Virus record (IMG/VR): IMGVR_UViG_3300007214_000055
Location: 2,209-66,208 of that record
DNA: 64,000 nt
Source of the DNA: a virus
Taxonomy: Duplodnaviria > Caudoviricetes
Strand: one strand, 5' to 3'
Shown here: positions 1,817 through 17,979 of the stretch, in pieces
How the letters are laid out: each line of letters opens with the position of its first letter
Numbering within the stretch: the first letter of the stretch is position 1
Notes under the pieces: model-generated
Seen by the model: only the letters and a program-made list of their open reading frames with translations
Database searches by the model: none
Told to the model about the DNA's origin: nothing
Position numbers and translations under genes: made by a program

Positions 1817-3631
1817 ATGACCGTTGCACCTTCAGACAACTACCGGAATGATGGTGCATTAGTTAATGCACTAACGGGCCTAGGTGTGCCTGCAAAAGAT
1901 AAAACAACTGCCACAAGTGTTCGCTTTCAGTCCTTACTGACGGAAGCCGAGCTTGAGTCGCTGTACACCAACGGTATCCCCCGGCGCTATGTCGATGCCA
2001 TTGGTGACGAAATACTACGCCACCGCCCCACTGTGGCTCTAGGGGGTGAGAGCAGTAGCGACAACGGTGAACTTCTCACAAAGTTTAATCAAACGCTTCA
2101 AGCCAGCCAATTTCACTTTGCGCTATCTGAAGTAATCAAGCTGCAACGCTTATACGGTGGCGCCGGCCTCGTACTCCTGATCGACGACGGTGGCCAGCCA
2201 GACGAAGCCGTCGAGCTCAGCCGCATTCGAGGCATTCGTGGCTACATCCCCCTTTCGCGTCACGAATTGATCCCCGAGGACGTATCAATCACCGATTACT
2301 CTCGTCCTTCGCACTACCGCATCACCACCAGCCAGCGCATTACCCCGGACCAGACCAGTGGCTATGTCAACATTCGTGTCCACCACACGCGTGTAGCCCG
2401 CTTCGACGGGCTCTACCTACCCTGGAACCTCCGCTCCCGCAATACCGGCTGGGGCCAGTCAGTCCTGCAGCTCATCTGGAACGCCTTCAAGCGCTACGAG
2501 ACCGCTATGTCCGGTCTCGAATCGATGACCTCTGATTCCGACGTCTTCGTTCACAAGATTCCCGGACTGTTCAACCGTATTGCCGCAGGCAACGAAGCCG
2601 ACCTCCGCAAACGTTTAGAAGCCAACAATCTCAGCCGCAGCGTCTACGGCGGCATGGTCGTTGACGTCGAAGAACAAATTGACTTCATCAACCGCGCTCT
2701 GAGCAACATCGCCACCGCCACCGATCCATTCATCAAGGATCTGCAAGCCGCCACGGGCTGGCCCGCCTCCATCCTCATGGGAGATTCACCTGGCGGTCTA
2801 GGCAAAGAAGGTCGCTTCGAGGAGCGTGTTTGGGCCTCGCTCGTTGAGCAGTGGCAGGAGGTCTACTGCCGCACCCCCATCACCGAGATCTTCACCTACA
2901 TCTTCGCATCGCGCGAAGGACCAACGCGCGGGCGCATCCCCGAGTCCTGGTCCGTTCTGTTTCCCTCGATCTTCACCCAGACCGACAAAGAAAAGGCGGA
3001 ACTCCAGCAGCTCAAAGCGGCTTCCGACATTCAGTACATCCAACTCGGCGTGCTGAACCCCCTTGAAGTCCGCGAATCTCGCTTTGGCGGCACCGAATAC
3101 TCGCTCGACACAAAACTTAACGAAACGGTCACGCAACAGCTCATCGCCAGCACCGACGCCCAGTTCCAGTCTCAGATGGCTGGCTACGACGCCCAGCTTC
3201 AGGCCGCCACGCAGCCTCCCGCACTACCTGAAGGCGAAGAGGCATCACCTGAAGCCGCTCCAACTCCCGAGGGCGACCGCGGCGACACCCTCTTCGATTC
3301 CGCCGAGGGCTTGCGCATCTGTGTCACACACCGGTGCGGCGACGTGGTGGCTGGACCTCTCGTTGGGCCCGACGGCCAACGCATCGACAGCAGCGCTGCT
3401 GCCCCCCTGCTGATCCTGGGCCCCCATCGCACCCGGGCCCGCAGGCTCTACCGAGCACGGTTTGCCCTTGACAGCGTCATCACGGATGGTCCCTACACCA
3501 CCGGCTTCAATTCCCTGCGCGCTGCCAAAACTGCCGTACAGCAGCTCTTTCCCGGTCAGAATGTGGTTGGGCTATCACCAGTGCCCGACGCCGAGGCCGA
3601 CGCCTTCCGCGCCTACAACGAGGGGTACTGA
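1817..3631 (+). CDS. Portal protein (DUF1073-like) with C-terminal extension
   Basis: Follows terL. DGALVNALTGLG N-terminus, RLYGGAGLVLLIDDG, HHTRVARFDG, GWGQSVLQ and ATGWPASILMGDSPGGL are typical of this portal family. Confidence 0.85.
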   Translation: MTVAPSDNYRNDGALVNALTGLGVPAKDKTTATSVRFQSLLTEAELESLYTNGIPRRYVDAIGDEILRHRPTVALGGESSSDNGELLTKFNQTLQASQFHFALSEVIKLQRLYGGAGLVLLIDDGGQPDEAVELSRIRGIRGYIPLSRHELIPEDVSITDYSRPSHYRITTSQRITPDQTSGYVNIRVHHTRVARFDGLYLPWNLRSRNTGWGQSVLQLIWNAFKRYETAMSGLESMTSDSDVFVHKIPGLFNRIAAGNEADLRKRLEANNLSRSVYGGMVVDVEEQIDFINRALSNIATATDPFIKDLQAATGWPASILMGDSPGGLGKEGRFEERVWASLVEQWQEVYCRTPITEIFTYIFASREGPTRGRIPESWSVLFPSIFTQTDKEKAELQQLKAASDIQYIQLGVLNPLEVRESRFGGTEYSLDTKLNETVTQQLIASTDAQFQSQMAGYDAQLQAATQPPALPEGEEASPEAAPTPEGDRGDTLFDSAEGLRICVTHRCGDVVAGPLVGPDGQRIDSSAAAPLLILGPHRTRARRLYRARFALDSVITDGPYTTGFNSLRAAKTAVQQLFPGQNVVGLSPVPDAEADAFRAYNEGY

Positions 3632-3634
3632 TCA

Positions 3635-6472
3635 GTGACGCGACACAACACCACTCCCGAAGGCTTCCGCACCGCGGCCTACTTGGCTACCAAGGCCCGC
3701 CTTGACGCCGCCCGCAGCCGCACTGGTAAAACAGCCCGCGGCGTCGATTGCAACCCACCCAACGTCAAGTGCGGAGGCCGCTGCATTCCCCCTGACTGGG
3801 ACTGCCGCCTTCACAACAAGGGCAGCGATCCTCATCTCCGCGCTCTTCGTACCGACCCTGTCAGCGGCCTGGCCAATATCGAGCGCGGTGTCAAACGACT
3901 GCGCGTAGGCGTCCGCAAGGGCAGCTTCTCCGAGATCGAAGGTGGCAAGCGCGCCATCGTGCGCGGTATCGTCAAAGCCACTCCTGGTGACTTGCAGCGC
4001 AAGCGGGCTCTCCAAGCGCAGCTCGAGCGCCGTGCTGGCGGCATAGCCCTCGGTCTAAGCATCGTCGGTTTCGGCTTGTTCAGCCACAACCAACTGAAGC
4101 GGGCCCCCTTCTACCGCGACGGCGTGGGCCGCCAGATCGATGACGCCGTAGCTGCCGGCATCAGCCGGGTTCTCGATAGCACCCCCGGCATCCGGGGCGC
4201 CCGCGCTGAGCGCCGCGCCGCTGGCGCCGCAGTCGCTGCGGCAGCCGTAGGACGCGCTGCCGCCGAGGCCGCCATAGGCCCTGCCGCACGTCGTACTGCC
4301 CTACTTCAGACACCCACCGAGCTCGAACGGCGCGCCACTGCGTACGGCAACGCCCGAGTCTTGTTAAATCGCATCGGAGCTGTCGATATTGATGCTGCCA
4401 ACCGCGGTGGTAACGCTGAAACCTGGCGTCAAAAAAGCCTAGAAGCTTTCTGGAGCTCCAAACGCACCAACGCCGCCGGTGCTGGAGATGGCAGCACCTT
4501 CTCTGAGCCCGCCACTCACGAATACCTGTCGCGGCAGTTTGGTTTTAACTTAGGCACAAACGCTTCAGATACTGATGTTCGCCGCTCTCTCACAGGCGCG
4601 TTGAATCGCGAAGCTGCTAGCCTTCAGGCCCTCGCCCGCCAACAGAACGTTGATATAAACAATGCCGAAGATCGCAGTCGTTTTCTCAATCGCCTAGTCG
4701 GTCCCAGCACACCCAATTTCCCCGAGAACGTCCGCGAGCGCGCTGTCGGCAACCTCAATCAAATACTCGGCGCTGCTCCTCGTACCCGGGAAGCAGCAGT
4801 CAGTCGTACTGAACTCGCTAATCACATTTATCGTCAAACCCGCGACGGCTTTGATCAGTACTTTGGCCGTATCGCTGATGAAGTTCGCCAAACCGCAGGC
4901 GTGGCTATGCCTACTGCGCAGCGGCAGGCTGGCTATAGCGACTTGATGAATAGCGCGCGTATCGGTCATTCTCGTTATCTCGCTACGCGTCTAAATAAGC
5001 CAAGCCTCATAAACGAGCGCATGGGACAAGGCCTATCTGACGTTGTTGCAAAGGAGTATTTTGCTCGGCAAGTAATGGCCAGCAGCTCATTCAGCCTGTC
5101 GCCACGAGAGACGCGGACCGCCGCCTCCGAGCTCGCAGGACGCAACATCACCGGCCTCAACGAAGCCACCCGCTATTTGCAGGAAAACGGTTTTCCTCGT
5201 CTGGTACCGGTTAGCGCACCTGCGGGACCAACAGCACCTGGGACGCGTCGCAGACGTCCTAATGTCCAGGCGCAGATCACCGACCTTGCTCGCTCCCTGC
5301 GCGAAGCTGCTCAGAGCCGCGGCGAGGATATGAGCCTTGAGGCTTCGTACCGCGCTGCGCGCGCCGAAATTGCTCGCCGCCAGCGCGGTGACGCCCTACC
5401 TCCCGGCTTGATGCGCACAGCCACCTACCTGGCTGTCCGTGCCGATCTCCGCGGCGAGGGAAAGCCCTGCGGTGCTTCGCACATTCCGAAGGCCCATACG
5501 TGCACGAAGGGGCAAGGCTCTGTAGAAAAGAAGGAACGACAGCTCTACGAGAAGAGTGCCACTAAAGCAGAGAAAGCTTACGTAAAAAAGCATGGTATGC
5601 CTAAAGATACGCTAAGTCTTGTAGAAGCTCAGCTAGAGCTAGAGAAAGAAACCAAGCAAACTAAACCTTCGCTCAAAACCGTAGCCACTGCAGCATTGGC
5701 TACAGGTGCAGTGGTTGGGGCAGCCGCGTTAATGACGGATCCCAAGGCTCGCCAGCGAGTGCGTGTTGAATCTCGCCTACTTATTCGTGGCTCAGATAAA
5801 GCAATCCGCCGAGCTCTAATGATCGGTGGCCGCGGCTCGATTGCCGGTTTGTCCGCCAAACAGGTTAAAGAGGGGTTGGATCGGCTGCCTTCAACGCTTC
5901 AAGGCCCAGCACGCAAACTGGTCGGGGCTGCCAAACAAGGTGCTGCAGCAATGGCACTTAAAGCCGAAGGTTTTACAATTCAAGACATTGACGTGGTAAA
6001 CAATTATTCAACATGGAAAAGCAAAAAAGGAACGTTGATCTCTATAGGTTCTTACGGAGATAGTTTAGTTACTTATGCTTCGGATAATTCGCACTCGTGG
6101 CAAGGTAAAAGAGTGTACAAAATAGGCTTTAATGTTGATCAGAACTTTGATGCGACGCGCAATATCCCCGCAGAACAAGCCAGAACTATAACCACAGCAG
6201 TGCGCAAGATGACCGACAATCATCTGGCTAAGATAAACAACGGTATTCTTGCTACTTTTCCGTGGGACGGCGACGAATTTGGAGCTAAGCGCCGAGCTAT
6301 TTATACTCGGGCAGGATTTAACAACATCATAGGCGAAGATTCACAGTGGGCTCTTGTGGAAAAAGGTCGCATCAAAAAGATGACTGAATCACAAGCATTT
6401 TTGTATTTGGCCGAATCCGGTGAACGCGACGCACCGATATATAAACCTAGTAAAAGGGAGCGCAGGGCTTGA
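3635..6472 (+). CDS. Modular head-associated polyprotein (2 Cys-motif units, C-terminal GNAT-like domain)
   Basis: 945 aa ORF between portal and MuF. Carries KCGGRCIPPDWDC and KPCGASHIPKAHTC, each followed by a hydrophobic helix; C-terminal KRRAIYTRAGF. Confidence 0.7.
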   Translation: MTRHNTTPEGFRTAAYLATKARLDAARSRTGKTARGVDCNPPNVKCGGRCIPPDWDCRLHNKGSDPHLRALRTDPVSGLANIERGVKRLRVGVRKGSFSEIEGGKRAIVRGIVKATPGDLQRKRALQAQLERRAGGIALGLSIVGFGLFSHNQLKRAPFYRDGVGRQIDDAVAAGISRVLDSTPGIRGARAERRAAGAAVAAAAVGRAAAEAAIGPAARRTALLQTPTELERRATAYGNARVLLNRIGAVDIDAANRGGNAETWRQKSLEAFWSSKRTNAAGAGDGSTFSEPATHEYLSRQFGFNLGTNASDTDVRRSLTGALNREAASLQALARQQNVDINNAEDRSRFLNRLVGPSTPNFPENVRERAVGNLNQILGAAPRTREAAVSRTELANHIYRQTRDGFDQYFGRIADEVRQTAGVAMPTAQRQAGYSDLMNSARIGHSRYLATRLNKPSLINERMGQGLSDVVAKEYFARQVMASSSFSLSPRETRTAASELAGRNITGLNEATRYLQENGFPRLVPVSAPAGPTAPGTRRRRPNVQAQITDLARSLREAAQSRGEDMSLEASYRAARAEIARRQRGDALPPGLMRTATYLAVRADLRGEGKPCGASHIPKAHTCTKGQGSVEKKERQLYEKSATKAEKAYVKKHGMPKDTLSLVEAQLELEKETKQTKPSLKTVATAALATGAVVGAAALMTDPKARQRVRVESRLLIRGSDKAIRRALMIGGRGSIAGLSAKQVKEGLDRLPSTLQGPARKLVGAAKQGAAAMALKAEGFTIQDIDVVNNYSTWKSKKGTLISIGSYGDSLVTYASDNSHSWQGKRVYKIGFNVDQNFDATRNIPAEQARTITTAVRKMTDNHLAKINNGILATFPWDGDEFGAKRRAIYTRAGFNNIIGEDSQWALVEKGRIKKMTESQAFLYLAESGERDAPIYKPSKRERRA

Positions 6473-7335
6473 TGAAGCTCCTTGAGCGCTACAACTCAGC
6501 CCTCCGTCGCTCCGAGGACGTCACCATCACCCAGCTCAACCGCATCCTCGAAAGCAGCTTCAACCGCTTACTCCGTCGTACCCGCATTCACCTGCGCAGT
6601 GGAACCCCAGCAGCCAGCCGCAACGTCGCCCTCCTGCAAGAGTTTCGCCAGCTCATCCCCGCTTTCCGCCCCGATCGCATCGACGCCTACGACCGTGTTT
6701 TACGTAGCCTGTTTCGCAGCTCTGAGCGCAGCGGCACCACTGTCGCCCGAGAACTTCTGCGTGACATCGCCCCTGAGCGCCGCCGCATTGACGTCGACAT
6801 CCCCATCGAAGCCACCGTGGCCGCTGCTGCACAGGCTCGAGGCTACCTCCGCCGCCATGGCGAAGCCTTTGCCACCACTGCCACCGAGCTCGTTGCCCAA
6901 GGTGTAACCGAAGGCCGCTCGACCGACGCCATCACCCAAGACATCCGACTGCGCCTCAACGTGGTGAAGTCCCGCGCTGACGTCATTGCCCGCACCGAAT
7001 CACTCCGCGCCTACAACGCTGCCAGCAACCAGTACTACGCCGCCAACGGCATCGATCTCGTCATGTGGTATGCCACCAGCGATGACCGCACCTGTCCTAT
7101 TTGCAACGCTCGGGCCGGCCGTATCTACAAGCGTGCCAGTACAAACGCACCAGCCCACCCACGCTGCCGCTGCTACCTCGCACCCTGGGACCCCGAGATC
7201 GCGGCTATGGATCCCGAGTACGCGTCCCTACCCCGCCGCCATCGCGAAGAAGTGTCTCGCGTGGCGACGGTTGGCCCCGCTGACCTCAGCCGCGCCGCAG
7301 TCTTTGAGCAGTTTGCTCCGCAGCCCTTCGATTGA
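6469..7335 (+). CDS. Head morphogenesis protein (SPP1 gp7 / MuF-like)
   Basis: RADVIARTESLRAYN...WYATSDDRTCPICNAR...PAHPRCRC signature. Confidence 0.88.
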   Translation: MMKLLERYNSALRRSEDVTITQLNRILESSFNRLLRRTRIHLRSGTPAASRNVALLQEFRQLIPAFRPDRIDAYDRVLRSLFRSSERSGTTVARELLRDIAPERRRIDVDIPIEATVAAAAQARGYLRRHGEAFATTATELVAQGVTEGRSTDAITQDIRLRLNVVKSRADVIARTESLRAYNAASNQYYAANGIDLVMWYATSDDRTCPICNARAGRIYKRASTNAPAHPRCRCYLAPWDPEIAAMDPEYASLPRRHREEVSRVATVGPADLSRAAVFEQFAPQPFD

Positions 7336-7575
7336 TCAGCCGAGCAAGCGCCGCTTGGCCTTATCGAGGGCGACATTTGCACTGGTCCCAACTACGCCAG
7401 ATGGGAAAAATAGAGCCGCTGTAGTCATCCATCTATCAAGGCAGGTATTAGCACTACCTTTGTTCAAAAGATTGGGTACTTCACAAGCACCCACAAAAAA
7501 AGTAGCAAATACAAGCTGCCCGATCAGTAACCCGGATCCGGCTCCACTACCCACTAGCAATCGAATCAAGTTCAT
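7336..7575 (-). CDS. Small hypothetical membrane protein
   Basis: 79 aa with two hydrophobic segments; fills the gap on the opposite strand. Confidence 0.5.
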   Translation of the reverse strand: MNLIRLLVGSGAGSGLLIGQLVFATFFVGACEVPNLLNKGSANTCLDRWMTTAALFFPSGVVGTSANVALDKAKRRLLG

Positions 7576-7661
7576 GGTCTGCCGTGCAGTTGCCCCAGCT
7601 TATCGGTCCCTATACCACAAAGCAGCTACGCTGTGTGCACTAACACCTGGGGCTCGACGCC

Positions 7662-8705
7662 ATGCCCGCCACCGCTCGCCGTTCTAAATCCGAGGCCTAC
7701 GAGAAGGGCATTCGTGAAGGTGCTGCCATGGCGCGCCGTTCTCGTAATATGGAGCCGCCTGAAGAAGAAGAAGAGGAAGAAGAGGAGGAGATGGACATGG
7801 CTCTGCAACCCGGGCATTCGCGCAAACGCAGCGCTAAAGGTGCCAAAAACACAAAGCCTGCCGCCGATGGGTACGGCACAAAGCGGCCCATGGACGCCGA
7901 GTGCGGCTGTAGCGGCAAAAAAGGTGGCAAGTGTGACGGCAGTTGCGACTCGACGCGCAAGCGCAGCGATGCCCTAACCCCCATCGAGTACCTCACCGCC
8001 TGCGAGCTCGGCATCCAAGACCGCAGCCGCTCCTATATCCGCGCCCGTCTCGACGCCACCGAGCGCCTCGACCTCAAATGCGGTAAGGGCTCCATCTCCG
8101 AGGGCGAAAAGTGCACAAAAGGTGCCGCAACTAAGGTACAACCTAATAAATATGCGAATTACGCTCCTAGCAAGATCACACTGAGAGGCGAAGAAACCGG
8201 AATCCTAAGCAGAAAGCGGATTCAGCGAGAAGGCTTTGCTGGCGCTGCGTATGGTGGTGACCCTTTCAGCCGCAAGGAACAAGCCAAGCGCGTGGCAGCG
8301 GTTAACGCATCTATTGTGGGTGGTATAGGAGCCGTTAGGGGCTACCAGATGGGCGGCCTCGGGGGTGCTCTAGTGGGAGGTCTTGCAGGTGCTGCATACG
8401 GCGGAGCTGTAGGCGCCTTACAGGGAGCCAATAGTGCCCAGCGAAATCGCGCAACCAGCAACGCCGCACGCATCTCGCTTGAAAGGCAGAAATTTGAGAA
8501 GCCGCGCGTAGCTCGCTTCAAAGCCCAACGTGCAAAAATGGTGGAAGCAGGAGCCTCACGCTCGGAACTTCGAGAACAAGATATGAAGAATGCCATGACC
8601 CTAGCCAAGGGTTACGACAGAATCTATAAGCGTAATCGTGGTCGTTATGGTGACTCGATATACGCTCAAGGATTCACCCCGGATATGGACCAACTCGACA
8701 TCTGA
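7662..8705 (+). CDS. Modular head-associated protein (poly-Glu, Cys-rich patch, Cys-motif unit, glycine zipper)
   Basis: E10 tract, ECGCSGKKGGKCDGSC, RLDLKCGKGSISEGEKC, GGLGGALVGGLAG, and C-terminal DSIYAQGF. Confidence 0.7.
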   Translation: MPATARRSKSEAYEKGIREGAAMARRSRNMEPPEEEEEEEEEEMDMALQPGHSRKRSAKGAKNTKPAADGYGTKRPMDAECGCSGKKGGKCDGSCDSTRKRSDALTPIEYLTACELGIQDRSRSYIRARLDATERLDLKCGKGSISEGEKCTKGAATKVQPNKYANYAPSKITLRGEETGILSRKRIQREGFAGAAYGGDPFSRKEQAKRVAAVNASIVGGIGAVRGYQMGGLGGALVGGLAGAAYGGAVGALQGANSAQRNRATSNAARISLERQKFEKPRVARFKAQRAKMVEAGASRSELREQDMKNAMTLAKGYDRIYKRNRGRYGDSIYAQGFTPDMDQLDI

Positions 8706-8708
8706 CCC

Positions 8709-9236
8709 ATGGCCCTGACCCCTGCAACCCTACGCCTCGACCTCAAATGTGGCCGCGGCTCCATCTCCGAGGGCGAAAAGTGCACCAAGGGCGCTGCTCA
8801 GCAGGTGCAGCCTGCGCGGCAGTCACAAGTTAAACGCTCACGCAACAAAGCTATTAAAACTGTTCTACTAGCAGCTGCATTAGGTGCAGGTATCGGGGCA
8901 GTTCGAGGTGGTCTTAGTGCACGAAAGTCCCGTAAAGCATATGCGGAGGGCGCATTATCTAAGATCAAACGTTTGAAAGCTAAAGGCAACGACACACTGC
9001 TAGCTGCGCTTAAGTCAGCTAAAAACAGTCAAGCAATGGGTATGAATGACCCTAGAACACAAGCGAGGCAATACGCCAACATCATGCAGGCTAAGACCAC
9101 ACGAGGACTAGCTAGACGCGCCGCGCGTGAAGGCCTAGCTGAACTAAAAGCGATCGTTCCTCTGTCCCCTGCCCGTAGGCGTGCTGCACGTCGTGGCCGC
9201 CGCGATTCTGTCTGGGCGGAGGGCTTCGACTCATGA
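8709..9236 (+). CDS. Modular head-associated protein (Cys-motif unit)
   Basis: MALTPATLRLDLKCGRGSISEGEKC...VLLAAALGAGIGAV...RRDSVWAEGF. Confidence 0.75.
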   Translation: MALTPATLRLDLKCGRGSISEGEKCTKGAAQQVQPARQSQVKRSRNKAIKTVLLAAALGAGIGAVRGGLSARKSRKAYAEGALSKIKRLKAKGNDTLLAALKSAKNSQAMGMNDPRTQARQYANIMQAKTTRGLARRAAREGLAELKAIVPLSPARRRAARRGRRDSVWAEGFDS

Positions 9237-9736
9237 CTATCACACGCAACGACGTCTTCATCGGCAACAAAAAGCTGAACTGCGGCCAAAACTCCAAGCC
9301 GTGCGGTAACGCCTGCATTCCTAAGGACCACAAGTGCCGTGCGTCCTGGAATAAGCCTGTGAAGCTCGCCGCCGGTGCCGCCGCACTCACCGGTGCAGCC
9401 ATCGTCGGTACGGCGTTCCTTCACCCGAGGGCGTCCATGCGCAGCGCCGCACGCCAAACCATCGAACCGGCGCTGCAGACCGGCTTCGCTGTCGGCAACG
9501 TCGCCCGCGGCAACTGGGCCGGTGCAGCCAAGAACGCGGCCAACGTGGCTGCCACAGGCGAGGGAATAGGTCGCAACCTGAGCACCTTGGCCAAGGGCTA
9601 CGGCACCGACATCAAAAACGCGGTCAACCGAGGACGGAACGCGGCGTTCAAGATGCGCTACCACCGCCCAGCCAAACGCCGCGACTCTGTCTGGGCTGCC
9701 GGCTTCACCCCCATGCCCGACACCTTCGACATCTGA
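9233..9736 (+). CDS. Modular head-associated protein (Cys-motif unit)
   Basis: RND...KPCGNACIPKDHKC...LAAGAAALTGAAIVG...RRDSVWAAGF. Confidence 0.75.
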   Translation: MTITRNDVFIGNKKLNCGQNSKPCGNACIPKDHKCRASWNKPVKLAAGAAALTGAAIVGTAFLHPRASMRSAARQTIEPALQTGFAVGNVARGNWAGAAKNAANVAATGEGIGRNLSTLAKGYGTDIKNAVNRGRNAAFKMRYHRPAKRRDSVWAAGFTPMPDTFDI

Positions 9737-9739
9737 CCC

Positions 9740-12415
9740 ATGGCACTGACTCCTGCGACCCTACGCCTTGACCTCAAGTGTGGCCGCGGAGCCATTTCCG
9801 CAGGTGAAAAGTGTCACGTAGGCCCTGCTACCAAAGTGCAGGAGAAACCCGCTGCGGCGAAAACAGAGCGCAGGGGATTAACAGGTCAGGAAAAAGCACA
9901 AGTTGCCGGGCTAGCTGCGTATGCGGCGTTAGGTGCAGTTACGCTATATCAGATGAAGAATATACGTAAAGCCTATAGTGAGAAATTTGATCCTGCACAA
10001 CGCTATAAACCATTCGAAGATACATTGGGGGATCCCAGTGACGTGCTTAATAATATCGCTAGTGCGGCTAAGCAAGCTGCACCCTCTCTATTCGGCGATG
10101 TGAGCTTCGGTAAGTACAAAGATAAAGATGTTGTCGTTAAAAGCTTCGGTAAAAAAGGAGCTATGGGGGCAATGCAAATTGGGCTTATGCAGCAACAAGG
10201 CATCCTGTCAAAGAACACAGCCGACGCGCTCGTACGAGGGCAAAATGCCCTCCAGATGAACGAAGTACAGGGTGCTTTCCTCGCCGGCCAACATGGCATC
10301 GGCCCCAAGGTTGTCGCAGCCGGCAATGGCACACGTCGGACCCTGTTTGGCCCAGAGCGCTCAAACATACTTGTCACCGAAGTCGCCAAAGGCCGCCCCC
10401 TTTCCAGTCAGGACGCCCTTATACGCCAAGGCCCTAAACTACAGGCGCAACTGCAGCAGAACCCAGGAGCTGCAATTAAAAAGATTGCTGCGCTCCGATG
10501 GCGCGGCTTTACCAAAGGCACCGAAATAAGTTCAGTGAACAAAGACCGCATCATTCGCAACATGGCAAAGATGCACACCTTGGGTATGTCTCATAACGAC
10601 TTGCACCCAGGGAACATTTTCATCAGTAAGGAAGGCGCGCAGTTCATCGACTTTGGCACCTCCTCTCGCGGTGGAGCTTCCGTCGCCTCCGAGTTCGTCC
10701 GCCTGATGAACCCGCCTCGCACCGGTCTGCAGCAAGCCGGCGGCATGGGGTACAACTTGCGCAGTATGGATCCCCAGGGCTACAAGACTGCTGAAGCGCG
10801 CATCCGCCAAGTCATTGGGAAACGCGTAGGTAAACTCACTTCTGCTGATATTCAAAAAGCACTTTCTAAAACCAAAGACAAGAACACGCTCGAATCCAAT
10901 TTGCAGCGTATCGTCGATGATTTTTATCAGCAGTACGAAAAGCGCTCTCGCACCGACGCTCTGACCCCCGCCTCCATTCGCCTTGACCCCGCCGGCACCA
11001 AGGTGGCTGCCATGGAGAAGCGCCTGCGCTCCGAGGGCGAGCAGAAAGGCCTCACTGGCGATCGCCTCGAGGCCTACATCTACGGCACCCTCAACAAGAT
11101 GGGTTACAAGCGGGGCAGCAAGACCACACGCAAGGGCGCAGCCAAGGCCAAGCGCACTGATGCTGCACGCAGCAAACCCTGCGGAGAGAGCCACATCCCG
11201 GCCAGCCACACCTGCCGCAAACGCGGCTCCTTTCCTTCACGCAAGGTCATCGCCGCAGGCCTCACCGCTGGCGCCATTGGCGCTGTGCTGCTCAACAAAG
11301 AAAGCCGCCGCGCCGTGCTCGGTGCGCCGCAAGCCGCCCGGCGCATGACACAGCGCGGCATCACCGAGCTCGTCCACCGCGCCACCGCCAAGCCTCCTTC
11401 GATGCGGCTTACGCCCAAGGCGCTTGAGCAGCTAAAGCCACCATCCAAAACGCTGCGACTGCACAGAGCTGCACAGCAGGCCAACAAGAGCGCAGAGCGT
11501 GCCATCGCTCGCGCTGCTCAAGCAGAAGTCGAACGCGGCCTAGCTGTAGGCAACGCCATGTACGCCGCGGGCAAAGCCACTCGAGCCTCCCTGCGCAGTG
11601 GCCTCCGTCGCCACAACCTCACCGTGGAAAAGCTTCGCCGCCGCTACGAGCCCGGGTACCGCAAACCGCGCACAGACAACTACATCCAGTACTACGCACC
11701 GGTACAAATACAGCCGCCTATACGCCAAGACGCAGAGCGCCGTGATGTCCAATTTGTGGACAAGGAATTACACGCCGCCGTCAAAGCCGAGGCAAAGCGT
11801 AAGTTCAAGATCTACCCGAGCGCGTACGCCAACGCCTGGATGGTACAGGAGTACAAAAAACGCGGCGGTACCTTCCGCAACGACGCGCTCGACAAGTGGT
11901 TTCAGGAAAAGTGGGTGCGCATGAGCAGCTCCGGCCGCATCCTCGGCCCCTGCGGCGACCGCACCGAGGGCGAAGGCAAGCCGAAATGCCTTCCCGCGGC
12001 CAACGCCATGGCGCTTTCCCCCACTGAACGTCGCCGCCTCGTCGCCCGCAAACGCCGCAACGATCCCCGCAAAGAGCGCACCGGCGCTCCCGTCATGGTG
12101 AGCTCCAAAACCGACGTCTGGGCCGCCGGCTTCGACACCGAGGACGGCAAGAAGTACTCCAAAAAGGTCCGCGACCCCGAGACCGGCCGCACCCGCACCG
12201 TCCGCTATGGCGCCAAGGGCTACACCATCGCCCCCGGCACGGACAAAGGCGACCGCTACTGCGCCCGCAGCTTCGGCGACATGAAGTCCCACGGCAAGGA
12301 CTGCGCCGGTGCTGACCGCAACACCCCCCTCTGCCTGTCTCGGGCCAAGTGGCGCTGCAGTGGCAAGGTATCGCGGCGCGACGAAGCCCTAACGCCGGGA
12401 AAGTCCTCGGCCTAG
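9740..12415 (+). CDS. Modular polyprotein with protein kinase domain and several small basic domains
   Basis: Kinase motifs VVVK (Lys at 10138-10140), HNDLHPGN (10592-10615) and DFG (10649-10657); two Cys-motif units; YPSAYANAW and KWFQEKW mini-domains. Confidence 0.82.
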   Translation: MALTPATLRLDLKCGRGAISAGEKCHVGPATKVQEKPAAAKTERRGLTGQEKAQVAGLAAYAALGAVTLYQMKNIRKAYSEKFDPAQRYKPFEDTLGDPSDVLNNIASAAKQAAPSLFGDVSFGKYKDKDVVVKSFGKKGAMGAMQIGLMQQQGILSKNTADALVRGQNALQMNEVQGAFLAGQHGIGPKVVAAGNGTRRTLFGPERSNILVTEVAKGRPLSSQDALIRQGPKLQAQLQQNPGAAIKKIAALRWRGFTKGTEISSVNKDRIIRNMAKMHTLGMSHNDLHPGNIFISKEGAQFIDFGTSSRGGASVASEFVRLMNPPRTGLQQAGGMGYNLRSMDPQGYKTAEARIRQVIGKRVGKLTSADIQKALSKTKDKNTLESNLQRIVDDFYQQYEKRSRTDALTPASIRLDPAGTKVAAMEKRLRSEGEQKGLTGDRLEAYIYGTLNKMGYKRGSKTTRKGAAKAKRTDAARSKPCGESHIPASHTCRKRGSFPSRKVIAAGLTAGAIGAVLLNKESRRAVLGAPQAARRMTQRGITELVHRATAKPPSMRLTPKALEQLKPPSKTLRLHRAAQQANKSAERAIARAAQAEVERGLAVGNAMYAAGKATRASLRSGLRRHNLTVEKLRRRYEPGYRKPRTDNYIQYYAPVQIQPPIRQDAERRDVQFVDKELHAAVKAEAKRKFKIYPSAYANAWMVQEYKKRGGTFRNDALDKWFQEKWVRMSSSGRILGPCGDRTEGEGKPKCLPAANAMALSPTERRRLVARKRRNDPRKERTGAPVMVSSKTDVWAAGFDTEDGKKYSKKVRDPETGRTRTVRYGAKGYTIAPGTDKGDRYCARSFGDMKSHGKDCAGADRNTPLCLSRAKWRCSGKVSRRDEALTPGKSSA
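12397..12403 (+). other. Putative -1 ribosomal frameshift slippery site G GGA AAG
   Basis: Lambda gpG/T-type heptamer in the correct phase, 4 codons before the TAG of the 9740 ORF; the -1 frame is open for ~368 codons. Confidence 0.65.
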
Positions 12416-13509
12416 CGCGAACCGACGCCCCCAAGGGCGGCAAGGGAAAGCCCTGTGGTAATTCGCACATAGCTAAAGCGTACAAGTGCAACAAAAAAGC
12501 AGGTGGTCTAACTGCTAAAAATCTCAAAACGGCTGCTAAAGTTGCAGTTGTTCTAGGCGCGCTAGCCGGAGGTACTGCCATCGCTAGAAAATGGAATGCG
12601 ACGGACGATAAAAAGTTAGCCGAAGCGCTTCAAGCTAACAAAACGTGGGACGTCTACGAGCAAAAGCGCCAAGAAGATGCCATCGACCCCGAGGTCGCAG
12701 AACTGCGTGCTCAGCGCGAACAACGGCGCGCTCGTTTTTGTGGGAGAACTGATTCGGAAAAGCCATTGGCCGGGCGCAATGACGCATATCAATCTTGCTC
12801 CCGGCAAATTGGTGAACAATCAGCTTACGGAACGCTGTTTGTACATCCAGATGGACAACGTGTATTCAAAGTCCCTACGGGGAGTCAATCATATTACATC
12901 ACAAAACAGCAAGCTATTGAAGCGTCACGTAACGAGTTCAAAGCTCTTGTAGAAGCTAAACAAGTAGGCGTAAACGTACCCAATCCTATAAGCATTAACC
13001 CCAGCACAGGCGTGCTACAAATGGAATACATACCCAATAGTGTAACGCTACGTGCGTTTAATAAAACTAACACATCCCCGCTTACAGCGCGCCAGATTAC
13101 AGATAATTTACTAGCACAAACACAAAAGCTACATAGATCTGGAATCGCACACAATGATCTACACTCTGGTAATGTCTTAGTTACACCAAATACTAAAGTT
13201 GCTATCATCGACTTCGGTTTAGCCACCACCCTACGCACCGAAGGTAGACGCGAAGTAATGGATAGCATTCATGCTGAACTAGGTACGGTAGTTAGGCGCG
13301 CCTCAGTTATTAACAAGTTTCAATCAAGCGAGATACATAAATGGATTATGACAAGAAACTCCCCCTCACTTAATAAACTACAGCAAGGAAACGTGTCAGA
13401 CGCGCAGTTAAAACTTATAATTGATAGGTTTTATATAGATCTGCATGATGCTCTACAGTTCAAAAGAAGAAACCCCACTACAATTTTACGGCTTAGCACT
13501 CCTGTTTAA
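12403..13509 (+). CDS. Second protein kinase module (probably expressed as a -1 frameshift extension)
   Basis: KPCGNSHIAKAYKC plus hydrophobic helix, then RVFK, NE, LQMEYI, HNDLHSGN (13150-13173) and IIDFG (DFG 13210-13218). No convincing independent start. Confidence 0.8.
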   Translation, partial: VLGLARTDAPKGGKGKPCGNSHIAKAYKCNKKAGGLTAKNLKTAAKVAVVLGALAGGTAIARKWNATDDKKLAEALQANKTWDVYEQKRQEDAIDPEVAELRAQREQRRARFCGRTDSEKPLAGRNDAYQSCSRQIGEQSAYGTLFVHPDGQRVFKVPTGSQSYYITKQQAIEASRNEFKALVEAKQVGVNVPNPISINPSTGVLQMEYIPNSVTLRAFNKTNTSPLTARQITDNLLAQTQKLHRSGIAHNDLHSGNVLVTPNTKVAIIDFGLATTLRTEGRREVMDSIHAELGTVVRRASVINKFQSSEIHKWIMTRNSPSLNKLQQGNVSDAQLKLIIDRFYIDLHDALQFKRRNPTTILRLSTPV

Positions 13510-13596
13510 GCACTAACCCTTAAGCTTTCAGCCACCGCTACGTTCGTAAACTTTTAGCAGCCCACTGTAGTCTTACTACAGCAGCGCTAGTTACCC

Positions 13597-14862
13597 GTGG
13601 GCCAACGCATTGTCGACAACGACCGCTACGAACTCGAGTACGTCCGCGGCGATGTCGAATATCCAGTACCCGTCCTCGCCAATACCGGCACAAGCGGTGA
13701 CGCCTTCGGCCGCCTCCGTACGAGCTCCCCTTTCACAGTCTTCGATAGCCAGCATCGCTACCAAGAAAACGACAAATGGGACACAGCACTAAATGGCGGT
13801 GGCACTAAAACCTATGTTGCAAACGAAAGTGCCATCAATCTCACGGTCCCCACTACCTCAGGCGCTTACGTCTATCGCGAAACCAAGCGCGTTTTCCCGT
13901 ACCAGCCAGGCAAGTCGCTGCTTGTGATGACATCGTTTGCCTTTGCTGCTGCGCAGGCCAACCTGCGCCAACGCATTGGCTACTTCAGCACGCAGAATGG
14001 TATCTATCTCGAGAACGACGGCACCGCCATCTATCTCGTCCGCCGCAGCTACGTCACCGGAAGCGTAGTCAATACCCGCATCGCCCAGGCCGACTGGAAC
14101 GGCGACAAGCTCGACGGCACCGGTCTCTCGAAGCGCACCCTTGACCTCTCCAAAACCCAGATCTTCTGGCTCGACATCGAGTGGCTGGGCGTCGGCGACG
14201 TCCGCTGCGGCTTCGTTGTTGACGGCCGCATGGTCATCGCCCACACCTTCCACGGTGACAACGTCAACACCACCAGCTACATGACCACCGCGGTGCTTCC
14301 ACTCCGCCAAGAAATCGAAAACACCAACACCATCGCCGCATCTGCCACCGCCAAGCAGATTTGCGCCACCGTCGCTTCCGAGGGCGGATACGAAGGCTTC
14401 AGCCGCCGTTACAACCTTTCAACTGGAGCTACTGCCATAACACTTACAACTGCAGGTACCAGCTACCCCATTATGGCTATACGACTTAATAGCACGCGTT
14501 TGGATAGTGTTATCGTGCCCTCAAACGTTAGTGCCGCCGTAGAGCAAACGACTAACAACAAACTAGACATCGTACAGTACCAAATACTATTAAATCCAAC
14601 GATTAGCGGTGGTACCTGGGCGACGCATGCTAACAACAACGTACAGTACAATACTACTATCAGTAGTTTCACTGGTGGCACCGAAATTGCAGGTGGCTAC
14701 CTTACGAGCTCGTCCTCCCTTGATCTCGGGAGCATCACCGATTTTAACTTTCAGCTTGGTCGTACCATTGCCGGTACCAGTGATGTTCTACTCATAGCAG
14801 CTATCCCAACAAACGATGCTGCCAAACTCTTCCTCGACTTGGCGTGGTTTGAGATCGTCTAA
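13597..14862 (+). CDS. Virion structural protein (cyanophage type)
   Basis: DAFGRLRTSSPFTVFDSQHRY and beta-rich lectin-like composition, recalled from cyanophage structural proteins. Confidence 0.6.
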   Translation: MGQRIVDNDRYELEYVRGDVEYPVPVLANTGTSGDAFGRLRTSSPFTVFDSQHRYQENDKWDTALNGGGTKTYVANESAINLTVPTTSGAYVYRETKRVFPYQPGKSLLVMTSFAFAAAQANLRQRIGYFSTQNGIYLENDGTAIYLVRRSYVTGSVVNTRIAQADWNGDKLDGTGLSKRTLDLSKTQIFWLDIEWLGVGDVRCGFVVDGRMVIAHTFHGDNVNTTSYMTTAVLPLRQEIENTNTIAASATAKQICATVASEGGYEGFSRRYNLSTGATAITLTTAGTSYPIMAIRLNSTRLDSVIVPSNVSAAVEQTTNNKLDIVQYQILLNPTISGGTWATHANNNVQYNTTISSFTGGTEIAGGYLTSSSSLDLGSITDFNFQLGRTIAGTSDVLLIAAIPTNDAAKLFLDLAWFEIV

Positions 14863-15078
14863 TCAAATATCTTTTACAAGCTCTTGCAGTCTTATGTCAT
14901 AGACTTCACTCAACGCTATTAGCTTCATAACGGAAACTTCTATTTCACCTTTTTCAAGCCTAGAATAAGCAGCTTGACTAACACCAAGTCTTTCTGCAAT
15001 TTCTAGTTGCGTGAGTTTATGGTACTCACGTAACGCCCTAATTCGCCTACATAAAGTCAGCTGTCGGTGAATCGCCAT
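14863..15078 (-). CDS. XRE-family helix-turn-helix regulator
   Basis: RIRALREYHKLTQLEIAERLGVSQAAYSRLEKGE; start ATG at 15078. Confidence 0.88.
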   Translation of the reverse strand: MAIHRQLTLCRRIRALREYHKLTQLEIAERLGVSQAAYSRLEKGEIEVSVMKLIALSEVYDIRLQELVKDI

Positions 15079-15140
15079 GCTCCATAACCGCTTTGTGCAT
15101 AACGCTAACCAAGCGCACAAGAACCGGTAAGCTATTAAGC

Positions 15141-16412
15141 ATGGAAACATCAGTGTCCAGGTACGACTTCGCTCCCATAACCGGAAGCGAGACCACCCCC
15201 GAGGGCTACCTCCGGGTCTGGTGTCGTGCTGCCCGCTCAGGTACGCAGCTATACCGCCGCGCTGATGGCTCCCAAGTCCGCGAATACAGGCCTCCCGAAG
15301 AGGTCGGTAGCCCGGACTCCCTCGCCACGTTCGGCATGAAGCCTGCAACGTGGGGTCACCCTCCGGTTCTTCTCGATTCCGCCAACACCAAGCAGTTCCA
15401 GGTCGGCTACTCCGGTAGCCAGGTCCGGTACAACGACGGTTTTGTCGAAGTCGCGCTCGTCGTCACCGACGCCGATGCCATCGAGAAGATCAAGCGCAAA
15501 GATGCCACCGAGGTATCCGCCGGCTACAAAGTCGATTTCGACCCCACCCCCGGGATCACCCCCGAGGGCGAAGAGTACGCCGGTGTCCAGCGCAACATCC
15601 GGGTCAACCACATCGCCATTGTCCCCCGCGGCCGGGCTGGCCCGGAGGTACGACTCTTGCTCGATCGCATGGATGCAGCCGATGCTGTAGCCGCCTTCCC
15701 CGAGCACGAAATGGCGCCCCAGTCCAGTTCAACTGCATCTCCCGTTATGGCAACCGTCAAACTCGACGGCCTGGAGATCGATCTGCCCGCAGAAGCAGCC
15801 AGCGCGGTCCAGTCCTACTCCCGGGACATGGGGCGCCAACTGCAAGCACTCGCCACCGAGCGCGATGAGCTTGCCACCAAGCTCGACTCTCTGCAGGCCG
15901 ACTTCGACTCCCTGGCCTACGACAAAGAGGCCGCTGAAGGTCGTGCCGACGCCCTCGAGGAGCAGCTCGCTGCTTCCAGCGGCGCGCGCATCGATACCGC
16001 CGAGCTCGACCAGCTCGTCGCCAAGCGCCTCGCCACCCTGCAGCGCCTGGCGCCTGCATTCACCGAGGACTTCAAATTCGACGGCATCGACGACACCTCG
16101 CTGTACGTCCAAGCTTTCGAGAATCTCACCGGATCCGCACCCAGCGAAGACGTTGAGCCCGCCTACATCCAAGGCGTGGTTGAAGGTATCCTCGCTGCTC
16201 GCGCAGACACCGAAGAGGACGACGCAGATTCTGAGGACGACTCCGCCCCTGGCGAGGAGCCCACAGAGGACGCCGAGCCTGATCGTGCCGACAGCACCGA
16301 CACCCTGCGTGACGCGCTGAAAGGTGCCGGCCGCTCCACCGACAACCCGATCACTGCTTATCGCAGCCGCACGGTTGACGCTTGGAAACGTCCCCTCACC
16401 GCTACCAAGTAA
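15141..16412 (+). CDS. DUF2213 prohead protease / scaffold
   Basis: TPEGYL...ARSGTQLY...TWGHPP...EVSAGY...QRNIRVNHIAIVPRGRAG, followed by a coiled-coil and acidic scaffold tail. Confidence 0.85.
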   Translation: METSVSRYDFAPITGSETTPEGYLRVWCRAARSGTQLYRRADGSQVREYRPPEEVGSPDSLATFGMKPATWGHPPVLLDSANTKQFQVGYSGSQVRYNDGFVEVALVVTDADAIEKIKRKDATEVSAGYKVDFDPTPGITPEGEEYAGVQRNIRVNHIAIVPRGRAGPEVRLLLDRMDAADAVAAFPEHEMAPQSSSTASPVMATVKLDGLEIDLPAEAASAVQSYSRDMGRQLQALATERDELATKLDSLQADFDSLAYDKEAAEGRADALEEQLAASSGARIDTAELDQLVAKRLATLQRLAPAFTEDFKFDGIDDTSLYVQAFENLTGSAPSEDVEPAYIQGVVEGILAARADTEEDDADSEDDSAPGEEPTEDAEPDRADSTDTLRDALKGAGRSTDNPITAYRSRTVDAWKRPLTATK

Positions 16413-16424
16413 GGAGTACCTCCA

Positions 16425-17045
16425 ATGGCCGTTTCTTTCACCCCCACCGTTGTCAGCAACCCGACTGGCGCCCAAGGCAGCTACCCCCTGGAGCTGACCG
16501 TTGGCCATGAAGGCATGATCGCTGACCTGCAGGCCTACGTGTCCCGCAGCTACTACAACCAGTCCGGCGTCGCTATTCCCTTCGGCTCCCTGGTTGCCAC
16601 CGACAACGACCCCGCCTCCAACGATCCCTTCGCCGTCCTGCTGGCCCCCAGCGGTACTGGTGTGGTGGGTCTGGCAGTCGACAGTCTGACCTTCGAGGGC
16701 GTTGGCGGCAGCTCCGCCTACACCCCCAACCCCACCAACGTCATCGGCGATGGCTCCCTTCGTGTGGGCTATCCCAACGGACAGACCATGAACGTCGTCT
16801 CCAAAGGCGTCGTCTGGGTCTACAGCACCGCTGCCATCGCCCTCGGTGATGCAGTGCGTTTCTTTGGTGTGGACCACTCAGCCACCGTCACCGGTGCCTA
16901 TGTCGGTCGCTTCACCAAAACCGCCGTGGCCAACAAAACCTTCGCCATGACTGGCGGGGCTCGCTGGCTATCTGAAACCAGTGGCGCCGGCCTGGTTCTC
17001 CTCGAGATCGACATCCCGGGGATCACCTTCACCGCCGACACCTGA
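16425..17045 (+). CDS. Capsid cement/decoration protein
   Basis: Between scaffold and MCP; AIPFGSLV...MNVVSKGVVWV pattern. Confidence 0.7.
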   Translation: MAVSFTPTVVSNPTGAQGSYPLELTVGHEGMIADLQAYVSRSYYNQSGVAIPFGSLVATDNDPASNDPFAVLLAPSGTGVVGLAVDSLTFEGVGGSSAYTPNPTNVIGDGSLRVGYPNGQTMNVVSKGVVWVYSTAAIALGDAVRFFGVDHSATVTGAYVGRFTKTAVANKTFAMTGGARWLSETSGAGLVLLEIDIPGITFTADT

Positions 17046-17061
17046 TCCCGGAGCCCCTCCC

Positions 17062-17979
17062 ATGACCACCGAAATCCGTAACGACTCGGTCGGCCTCTTT
17101 CTCGCTCGCGAGCTGGAAACCATCCTCGCCCGCGCATTTGAAGTCGAGTACGCCGACATCAAGTACAGCGCCGTTATCCCCGTATCTTCCGAGGTCGGTA
17201 ACGGTATGGATTCCTTCACCTATCGCGTCTTCGACAAGCAAGGCTCGATGAAGGTAATCGGCGACAAAGCCCAGGACCTGCCTCGTGCTGACGTGCTCCG
17301 CAAGGAAGTCACTCACCCGGTTCGCAGCCTTGGTGCATCTTTCGCCTACACCGTTCAAGAAACTCGGGCTGCCGCCATGGTGCCCGGCATGAACCTGGAG
17401 CAGCGCCGTGCCAACGCTGTGCGCCGCGCCTACGAAGAGAAAGTGCAGGAGATCGCCTACTTCGGCGATGCCCCCTCCGGCATGAAGGGCTTCTTCAACA
17501 ACAACCAGGTGGACAAGCTTGTACCGGACCACTGGTTCGATACTGCGGACATCACCACCGACGAGATGCTGCAACTGCTCAACGAACCCGCCACGCGGAT
17601 CGTGCAGAACAGCAACATGAAGGAGATGCCCAACACGATGCTGGTGCCCTACAACGTGTACCGCATCATCTCCACCACCCCGCGCAGCACCACCTCCGAC
17701 ACCACGGTGATGGAGTTCTTCCTGCGCACCAATCCGATGATCACCGCGATCGAGCCCATCAACGAGCTCGAGGCCTCCAAGTCCGGCGGCGTCCTTTCCA
17801 AGGACCGCGTGATCTGCTACGACCGCAGCCCTGACAAGCTGCAACTGCACGTACCGCAGCCTCTCGAGTTCTTCCCGCCTGTGCGCACCGAGCTCGAGTT
17901 TTCCGTTGCGGCACACGCCCGCATCGGCGGCCTCGCGCTCTACTACCCCAAGAGCGCCATCGTGCTCGAAAAGGCCTGA
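17062..17979 (+). CDS. Major capsid protein (DUF2184 / encapsulin-like HK97 fold)
   Basis: FLARELETI...YSAVIPV...YTVQETRAA...IAYFGD...GFFNN...RIGGLALYYP; start ATG at 17062. Confidence 0.88.
   Translation: MTTEIRNDSVGLFLARELETILARAFEVEYADIKYSAVIPVSSEVGNGMDSFTYRVFDKQGSMKVIGDKAQDLPRADVLRKEVTHPVRSLGASFAYTVQETRAAAMVPGMNLEQRRANAVRRAYEEKVQEIAYFGDAPSGMKGFFNNNQVDKLVPDHWFDTADITTDEMLQLLNEPATRIVQNSNMKEMPNTMLVPYNVYRIISTTPRSTTSDTTVMEFFLRTNPMITAIEPINELEASKSGGVLSKDRVICYDRSPDKLQLHVPQPLEFFPPVRTELEFSVAAHARIGGLALYYPKSAIVLEKA

Follow-up and report, generated by a model that had tools for sequence, protein, structure and literature searches.

A basic-x-Asp motif as the probable cut site of a DUF2213 prohead protease in the head and cargo proteins of an S-CBS4-related siphovirus

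The virus record IMGVR_UViG_3300007214_000055 of IMG/VR encodes a phage head module in which the portal, scaffold, capsid and putative cargo proteins share the tripeptide Arg-x-Asp (R-x-D). The window, i.e., the whole stretch of 64,000 nucleotides analyzed here, covers nearly all of this 66.2-kb record; the closest cultured relative is the Synechococcus siphovirus S-CBS4, with 55% identity between the capsid proteins. We regard it as likely that the phage's own DUF2213 prohead protease recognizes [R/K]-x-D where a small residue follows and cuts after the Asp, and we infer such cleavage in this phage. Throughout, the basic residue is called P3, the middle residue P2, the Asp P1 and the residue after the cut P1', and a slash within a site marks the proposed scissile bond. 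The initial annotation had DUF2213 cutting after R-x-D. The idea finds support in the capsid proteins of the coliphages TLS and T1 and has to be refined in three respects: P3 can also be Lys and P1' is usually small, not every copy of the motif is a site, and the rule holds for the T1-like/cyanophage clade only. Copies in folded domains or ahead of Pro are probably left uncut and are therefore not counted as sites.

Motif excess in the head module and the capsid site

The head module spans positions 1817-17979 and, according to Pfam, PHROG and open reading frame (ORF) calls, comprises 12 proteins. They are given below in gene order with lengths in amino acids (aa); the true starts of the DUF2213 gene (ATG at 15141) and the capsid gene (ATG at 17062) were taken from relatives.

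1817..3631, + strand: portal protein, 604 aa, Phage_portal_3 (Pfam PF06381, E-value 5.6e-54)
3635..6472, + strand: putative cargo ORF, 945 aa, two units (R-x-D conservation in relatives)
6469..7335, + strand: MuF-like minor head protein (Pfam PF04233)
7662..8705, + strand: putative cargo ORF, 347 aa (R-x-D conservation)
8709..9236, + strand: putative cargo ORF, 175 aa (leader and C-terminal tag)
9233..9736, + strand: putative cargo ORF, 167 aa (C-terminal tag)
9740..12415, + strand: putative cargo polyprotein, 891 aa, kinase-like and DUF5872 (Pfam)
12349..13509, + strand: kinase-2 unit, 386 aa, RIO/Pkinase-like (Pfam)
13597..14862, between the cargo block and the protease gene: virion structural protein, 421 aa (phrog_1645, E-value 1e-112)
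15141..16412, + strand: DUF2213 prohead protease (residues 1-172) and helical scaffold (200-423) (Pfam PF09979, 142 bits)
16425..17045, + strand: cement/decoration protein (Pfam PF22758)
17062..17979, + strand: major capsid protein, 305 aa (PF09950; homologous to T1 gp47 and TLS gp36)

Expected motif counts were obtained from 300 shuffles, performed on whole proteins and in local blocks of 30 residues. The 12 head proteins together contain 44 copies of R-x-D, where 23.2 would be expected (z 4.5-5.0), and 24 of R-x-D-[AST], where 6 would be (z 7-8); neither count was reached in any of the 300 shuffles. No excess was found in the 39 non-head proteins of the window, with 33 copies of R.D against 42 expected and 7 of R.D[AST] against 10. 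Of all 400 residue pairs with one gap, R.D ranks first in the head set; RD and D.R are depleted, and R..D, K.D and R.E are flat. The enrichment is present both in the portal, scaffold and capsid proteins taken alone (9 copies, 1.7 expected, P 7e-5) and in the cargo ORFs taken alone (13 copies, 3.2 expected, P 3e-5). Moreover, R-x-D lies inside the first 25 residues of 9 of the 12 head proteins but of only 1 of the 39 others (Fisher 7e-7). The excess of R-x-D in head proteins is real and beyond chance; shuffling and the non-head comparison, both of which had been proposed at the outset, confine it to these proteins and reveal its N-terminal positional bias. The cement protein contains no R-x-D at all; being on the capsid exterior, it is not expected to be reached by the protease.

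Every site quoted in the initial annotation was recovered, namely RND10, RGD488 and RID522 in the portal, RND6 in the capsid protein, and RMD176, RID283, RAD354 and RAD382 in the DUF2213 protein, as were the cargo triplets RLD, RTD, RGD, RAD, RND, RQD and RRD. It had also described both kinase domains as free of the motif, which our count bears out, the long payloads of the 945-aa ORF as holding a single copy, which is RTD72, and some ten copies as clustering late in the ORF that starts at 9740, where 9 of 10 fall within residues 404-879. Across payload domains, 0 copies stand against 5.2 expected, a weaker piece of evidence because the segments were picked post hoc, and gap tests for clustering of R-x-D within single cargo ORFs were weak (P 0.22, 0.03 and 0.20).

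The capsid protein provides the link to measured cleavage. It is homologous to the capsid proteins of T1 and TLS (E-value 2e-28 to PDB 9kzj/9kmg), two Drexlerviridae phages with the same head gene order (portal, MuF, protease-scaffold, cement, capsid) and with proteins of the same two families, PF09979 and PF09950 (gp50 and gp47 in T1, gp33 and gp36 in TLS). Its N-terminal motif is the following:

17077..17085, + strand: capsid RND6-8/SVGLF, predicted maturation cut removing 8 residues (aligned to the TLS/T1 site)

Edman sequencing of the mature TLS capsid protein gave the N-terminus ASDMGIW (PMC11447400), which maps directly after K-N-D32 in the gp36 translation (KND/ASDMGIW). The cryo-EM model of T1 gp47 begins at residue 27 (PMC11945409), and A27 directly follows K-Q-D26 (KQD/AAATMGIW), an anchor that consists of the first modelled residue only. 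Other Drexlerviridae read KLD/AHGIW, KAD/AAGIW and KAD/QLGIW, with K-x-D 2-5 residues ahead of G-I-W. In about 80 distinct relatives of the capsid protein studied here, down to 53% identity, the R and D are invariant while P2 is N, L, M, T or F, and R-x-D sits 2-3 residues ahead of G-[LIVF]-F with varying spacing. Cleavage after basic-x-Asp has thus been measured in a homologue, the TLS capsid protein, and is predicted for this phage from the alignment; because the aligned TLS site is an Edman-sequenced cut, the motif is most likely a head-protease cut site. The predicted loss is 8 residues here versus 26-32 in T1 and TLS. For TLS, a loss of 45 capsid residues was inferred in the original report (PMC11447400), whereas the Edman sequence can be placed at residue 33 of gp36 as annotated (locus L158, 15072-16061), corresponding to 32 residues lost, or to 27 if translation begins at Met6. 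A second capsid copy, RAD75, is probably structural. In phage Sf11, mass-spectrometry coverage begins at residue 40; the Pam3 and Pa193 papers yielded neither a capsid N-terminus nor cleavage data.

The DUF2213 protease-scaffold and the spread of the motif

The DUF2213 match scores 142 bits against a gathering cut-off of 22 and covers residues 34-188 of the TTG-start ORF. The AlphaFold2 (AF2) model of the protein has a predicted local distance difference test (pLDDT) score of 84 and consists of a beta-rich domain at residues 1-172, with pLDDT above 90, and, after a disordered linker (173-198), a long helical scaffold. In a Foldseek search of the PDB, the top three matches were T4 gp21 chains (5JBL; E-value 3e-5, probability 1.00, template modelling score 0.60-0.63 on the target). 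A PDB sequence search with the protease-scaffold returned coiled-coil noise only and did not recover the Pa193 gp24 fragment. H73, S126 and H157 are invariant in 36 diverse homologues. The protein shares 30% identity with T1 gp50 (E-value 5e-24), and S126 aligns to gp50 S121, the residue that a preprint on Drexlerviridae proteases names as catalytic in Bas11 and Bas13; the DUF2213 protein is described there as having its protease part at the N-terminus and its scaffold at the C-terminus (bioRxiv 10.1101/2023.05.21.541620). As modelled, the DUF2213 domain is a prohead (capsid maturation) serine protease of the fold to which herpesvirus assemblin, HK97 gp4 and T4 gp21 belong, with predicted activity, and H73, S126 and H157 are its probable catalytic residues, judged from their invariance.

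Five R-x-D-[AST] sites are distributed over the linker and scaffold of this protein, and three further copies lie in the folded protease:

15666..15674, + strand: RMD176/A, where the protease domain gives way to the disordered linker (173-198) (D-[AS] kept family-wide, P3 not)
15942..15950, + strand: RAD268/A, conserved island in a scaffold helix (133 homologues: P3 R in 65 and K in 55, P1 D in 124, P1' A, T, S or G)
15987..15995, + strand: RID283/T, break between helices 217-280 and 286-306 (aligned to KHD291/G of T1 gp50)
16200..16208, + strand: RAD354/T, near the end of a scaffold helix, ahead of an acidic linker (close relatives: R in 50 and H in 7, D in 56 of 57)
16284..16292, + strand: RAD382/S-T, island ending a variable acidic linker (366-384) (R in 57 of 57, D in 56, S in 56; P2 and both flanks variable)
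15159..15167, + strand: RYD7, first beta-strand of the protease fold (strand 3-18, pLDDT 88-96; R in 121 and D in 126 of 133; P1' not small)
15258..15266, + strand: RAD40, in the folded protease
15495..15503, + strand: RKD119, in the folded protease

RYD7, RAD40 and RKD119 are probably structural rather than cut sites.

The motif extends to the T1 and TLS proteins, in which basic-x-Asp likewise stands just ahead of the N-arm of the capsid protein and is repeated many times along the scaffold, with Lys at P3 where this phage has Arg. [KR]xD[AGST] occurs 16 times in the T1 head module (4.1 expected) and 15 times in that of TLS (3.7 expected), mostly in the scaffold, which holds 11 copies in T1 and 12 in TLS; the remaining proteins of the two phages contain 20 copies against 20 expected. 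A set of 132 diverse relatives of the protease-scaffold, clustered at 50%, yielded 1137 copies of [RK]-x-D-[AGST] where 204 were expected (z 70). The median protein carries 9 copies, compared with 1.5 expected, and 127 of the 132 lie above expectation, while the controls [RK]xE[AGST], [RK]D[AGST] and [RK]xxD[AGST] were flat or depleted. Matches to the DUF2213 protease-scaffold number more than 11,000 cluster representatives at an E-value of at most 0.001.

Candidate sites were also found in the portal and the MuF-like protein:

1844..1852, + strand: portal RND10/G (N-terminal [RK]-x-D-G also in the T1 and TLS portals, KHD/G and KED/G)
3278..3286, + strand: portal RGD488/T, candidate cut where the acidic/Pro linker meets the C-terminal extension (30 relatives: P3 R in 13 and K in 9, P1 D in 25, P1' S or A)
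3380..3388, + strand: portal RID522/S, candidate cut in the C-terminal extension (R in 22 of 25, D in 22 of 25, variable P2, P1' S, A or T)
6676-6684, + strand: MuF-like RID70/A, the sole site-like copy by its conservation pattern

RND10/G stays a candidate because the T1 portal model begins only at residue 32. Flank conservation at RGD488 and RID522 is 40-57%, with a flank identity of only 0.40 at RGD488 in the 30 relatives. The portal copy RFD195 is probably structural, and the R-x-D copies of the MuF-like protein lie mostly within its conserved domain. The C-terminal extension of the portal comprises residues 491-604 (3287-3631), about 114 residues behind the acidic/Pro linker; the T1 and TLS portals lack it, and the S-CBS4 portal is comparably long (626 aa).

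Leaders, tags and junctions in the cargo ORFs

Between the portal and protease genes, the motif recurs at the following positions:

3698-3706, + strand: 945-aa ORF RLD22/A, candidate (R 22/22, D 22/22, variable P2)
3848-3856, + strand: 945-aa ORF RTD72/P, probably uncut
5384-5392, + strand: 945-aa ORF RGD584/A, candidate (R 18/23, D 19/23, flank identity 0.45)
5438-5446, + strand: 945-aa ORF RAD602/L, leader end
7962-7970, + strand: 347-aa ORF RSD101/ALTP (R 20/23, D 22/23, P2 N, S, G or R, P1' A or S)
8046-8054, + strand: 347-aa ORF RLD129/A
8064-8072, + strand: 347-aa ORF RLD135/LKCG
8733-8741, + strand: 175-aa ORF, end of the leader M-ALTPATL-RLD9/LKCG
9198-9206, + strand: 175-aa ORF RRD164/SVWAEGF, ahead of the C-terminal tag
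9245-9253, + strand: 167-aa ORF RND5/V
9677-9685, + strand: 167-aa ORF RRD149/SVWAAGF, ahead of the C-terminal tag
within the ORF 9740..12415, + strand: 891-aa ORF RLD9, candidate junction
10949-10957, + strand: 891-aa ORF RTD404/ALTP, candidate junction
11153-11161, + strand: 891-aa ORF RTD472/A, candidate junction (basic P3 and Asp P1 kept)
11723-11731, + strand: 891-aa ORF RQD662/A, candidate junction (invariant R662, D664 and A665)
12374-12382, + strand: 891-aa ORF RRD879/E, candidate junction
12418-12426, + strand: kinase-2 RTD24/A, ahead of the KPCG motif (D 10/10, A 10/10)
12775-12783, + strand: kinase-2 RND143/A, ahead of the kinase domain (K 7/11, D 9/11, A 8/11, flank identity 0.21)

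RLD22, RGD584, RSD101, RTD472, RTD24, RND143 and the two RRD/S sites combine a conserved P3 and P1 with a variable P2 and variable flanks. The motif is further associated with two recurring elements. A leader of the form M-ALTP-x-x-hydrophobic-R-x-D stands at the ORF start in 15 of 18 distinct instances and precedes at least 8 payload types. A C-terminal tag, S-[VI]-[WY]-A-x-G-F, was found in 61 distinct instances in related contigs (L003-L104), in most of which it ends 9 or 16 residues before the stop; the residue ahead of it is Asp in 61 of 61, and a basic P3 (R or K) is present in 55 of 61. In the window, the tag regions lie at 9198-9236, 9677-9736 and 8650-8705; in the last of these, within the 347-aa ORF, the tag is preceded by YGD instead of R-x-D. 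An internal tag copy, KTD/VWAAGF, precedes a conserved DTEDGKKY module.

The 891-aa polyprotein combines a leader, a Cys motif, a membrane-like helix, a kinase-like domain, mini-modules and DUF5872. R662, D664 and A665 are invariant at a junction whose upstream and downstream modules differ among relatives, in which the kinase domain closes with R-x-D and is then followed by different modules. The module after RTD404 forms a separate gene starting with M-ALTP in loci L020 and L034. Over 34 related contigs, the motif was counted 361 times in the ORFs upstream of the protease, where 201 copies are expected, and 96 times in the tail ORFs, where the expectation is 143. The conservation of these sites and their place at module junctions point to cleavage of the cargo polyproteins, and the position of the genes between portal and protease, together with the common motif, suggests that the cargo is packaged in the capsid.

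The following sequence of events would accommodate these data. The protease would be built into the prohead via its C-terminal scaffold and would act after prohead assembly, cutting the first 8 residues off the capsid protein and cleaving itself at about five sites in linker and scaffold; it would probably release the C-terminal extension of the portal and would process the cargo proteins, whose genes lie between those for portal and protease. In these cargo proteins, the motif would close the N-terminal leader, precede the 9- or 16-residue C-terminal tag and sit at the polyprotein joints, so that cutting would clip off address peptides and free the modules, two kinases among them, inside the head. 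We give about even chances to the broader proposal that the Asp-at-P1 specificity of the T1-like/cyanophage DUF2213 clade has been turned into a general load-and-release system, in which payloads (kinases, DUF5872, membrane-helix units) equipped with a clip-off leader, a tag or both, or joined into polyproteins by the motif, are freed in the siphovirus head and delivered with the DNA.

Several further features of the cargo block were recorded. The two divergent kinase-like domains of the head module (9740-12415 and 12349-13509) each lie behind a Cys motif and a Gly/Ala-rich membrane-like helix. The Cys motifs read KPCG-x-S-H-I-P-x-x-H-x-C or LKCG-x-G-x-I-S-x-G-E-K-C, and the cargo ORFs contain eight such Cys-plus-helix units. 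A slippery heptamer, G GGA AAG, is present at 12397-12403, four codons ahead of the TAG stop of the 891-aa ORF (12397-12415); a -1 shift at 12397-12403 would enter the kinase-2 ORF and rebuild the leader RRD-EALTPGK-VLGLARTD-APKGGKGKPCG. In the related locus L063, units of the 891-aa type and of kinase-2 are fused in a single frame.

Alternative explanations and known systems

The evidence obtained here consists of the excess, position and conservation of the motif, the protease fold, and the homology to T1 and TLS. Several observations weigh against reading the motif as a cut site. Measured cleavage data come from relatives only and from the capsid protein only (TLS, T1). In the capsid protein of this phage, the residues after R-x-D (G-L-F-L-A-R-E-L-E) are likewise conserved, and the conservation of R-x-D could therefore be partly structural. 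The leader-end sites have Leu at P1' (RLD/LKCG), whereas the proven sites have a small P1'. Several R-x-D copies lie within folded domains or ahead of Pro, and those before Pro (RTD72, RLD414, RND773) are unlikely cut sites. For the 891-aa cargo protein, an alignment of 7 sequences gave an AF2 model with a mean pLDDT of 45, too poor to place sites at domain edges or linkers. The raw counts are inflated by leaders and tags that are paralogous to one another; with these collapsed, P is still about 7e-5. Finally, some DUF2213 phages lack the motif. The PB1 protein (locus L167, 5172-6569), with its Glu-rich scaffold, shows no excess (2 copies, 3.0 expected), nor do the Chaseviridae-like PVN02 and 4HA13 and a Vibrio phage, whose capsid N-termini carry no clear basic-x-Asp. 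Erwinia phage phiEt88 reads N-M-D at the capsid site. PB1, PVN02, 4HA13 and the Vibrio phage rule out a rule for all DUF2213 proteins. Since PB1-type and Chaseviridae-like DUF2213 proteins are without the motif, the rule is clade-specific and not a Pfam-wide property, and cleavage specificity probably differs between DUF2213 clades.

A narrower role of the protease would be that it cuts only the capsid protein and its own scaffold, the cargo motif being either part of an address or docking element that stays uncut and to which the protease/scaffold binds during loading, or a remnant of cassette junctions, with the polyproteins intact in the virion. Such a restriction is suggested by the leader-end sites, where the P1' Leu stands directly against a conserved Cys motif, by the conservation of tag and leader as whole units, in which R and D could be binding residues, and by the precedent of SPN3US, 42 head proteins of which are left uncut by the prohead protease (PMC10052503). 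We nevertheless consider it unlikely, as the cargo sites share the pattern of the capsid and scaffold sites (basic P3, free P2, Asp P1, mostly Ala or Ser at P1') even where flank identity is 21-45%, as the same cargo module occurs either as its own M-ALTP gene or fused after R-x-D, and as an exposed motif within a prohead containing active protease is expected to be cut. That the motif marks cuts by another enzyme, of the host or a second phage protease, or that the scissile bond does not follow the Asp, appears improbable. The anchors do comprise only a new capsid N-terminus in TLS and a first modelled residue in T1, and the activity of DUF2213 is a prediction; against this, the motif tracks the protease clade over phages of different hosts, both cyanophages and coliphages, reaches its highest density in the scaffold of the protease itself and accompanies a domain with a prohead-protease fold and invariant Ser and His, and Pfam and PHROG scans revealed no other protease in the head module. 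Even less credible is a functionless motif, with the excess arising from composition, helical periodicity or repeated paralogous segments. Arg/Asp-rich helical scaffolds and duplicated leaders and tags do yield non-independent copies, but z remains 5-8 in local 30-residue shuffles, the related patterns R..D, RD, D.R and R.E are not enriched or are depleted, and the excess appears separately in the non-paralogous core proteins and independently in T1 and TLS, with Lys for Arg.

Cleavage by the DUF2213 protease after basic-x-Asp can be compared with the few phages for which motif-directed head maturation is known in detail, i.e., T4 (L/I-x-E) and phiKZ/SPN3US (A/S/G-x-E). T4 gp21, whose fold matches the DUF2213 model, follows the rule [LI]-x-E (PMC10052503) and similarly acts on a single short motif common to capsid, scaffold and packaged proteins. 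The T4 internal proteins IPI-III and Alt carry an N-terminal address peptide of about 10 residues that ends in the protease motif and is clipped off, to which the leader described here may be likened; P1 is Glu and P3 aliphatic in T4, in contrast to Asp and a basic P3 here, and T4 differs from the present siphovirus, in which the protease is fused to the scaffold and the cargo takes the form of polyproteins with an extra C-terminal tag. No PHROG or Pfam link of the cargo ORFs to T4 internal proteins was found, nor any sequence homology of leaders or cargo. In phiKZ and SPN3US, gp175 and gp245 follow the A/S/G-x-E rule, portal, capsid and ejected proteins are processed, and long propeptides are cut at several motifs (PMC10052503); processing is alike in being motif-directed, but these giant myoviruses differ in motif and lineage and have no polyprotein cassettes. 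T1 and TLS are without a cargo array, leader or tag, and the published T1 and TLS papers state no cleavage rule. In the Pbunavirus Pa193, a scaffold fragment of gp24 (286-326) remains under the capsid vertices (PMC11456595). Pa193 gp24 and PB1 gp22 have the same Pfam domain fused to a scaffold that is Glu-rich and without [KR]-x-D excess, and the cleavage rule of the Pbunavirus clade, if any, must differ from basic-x-Asp. Xp10/Xop411 and Felix O1 were set aside as comparisons, their papers being concerned with ClpP/S49-type proteases.

A full-text literature search found no paper stating the basic-x-Asp rule. What would be new relative to the T4 and phiKZ logic is the Asp at P1, the basic P3, the scaffold-fused protease in a siphovirus and the polyprotein cassettes. 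The DUF2213 protease-scaffold is very common and is present in model and therapeutic coliphages (T1, TLS and the Bas phages, in the last of which it is a trigger of cyclic oligonucleotide-based antiphage signalling system (CBASS) defence). If true, the rule would make the mature ends of capsid, portal and scaffold proteins predictable from sequence, explain the clearance of the scaffold from the head and flag packaged cargo in uncultured phages; in the present cyanophage, it singles out two protein kinases and several modules of unknown nature as likely capsid-delivered proteins.

Two observations concern other parts of the locus. In the 421-aa virion protein, RGD17 and RLD301/S are kept in every relative seen. 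A small minus-strand ORF (1271-1648), located between the terminase and portal genes, contains HNH-endonuclease-like Cys/His motifs.

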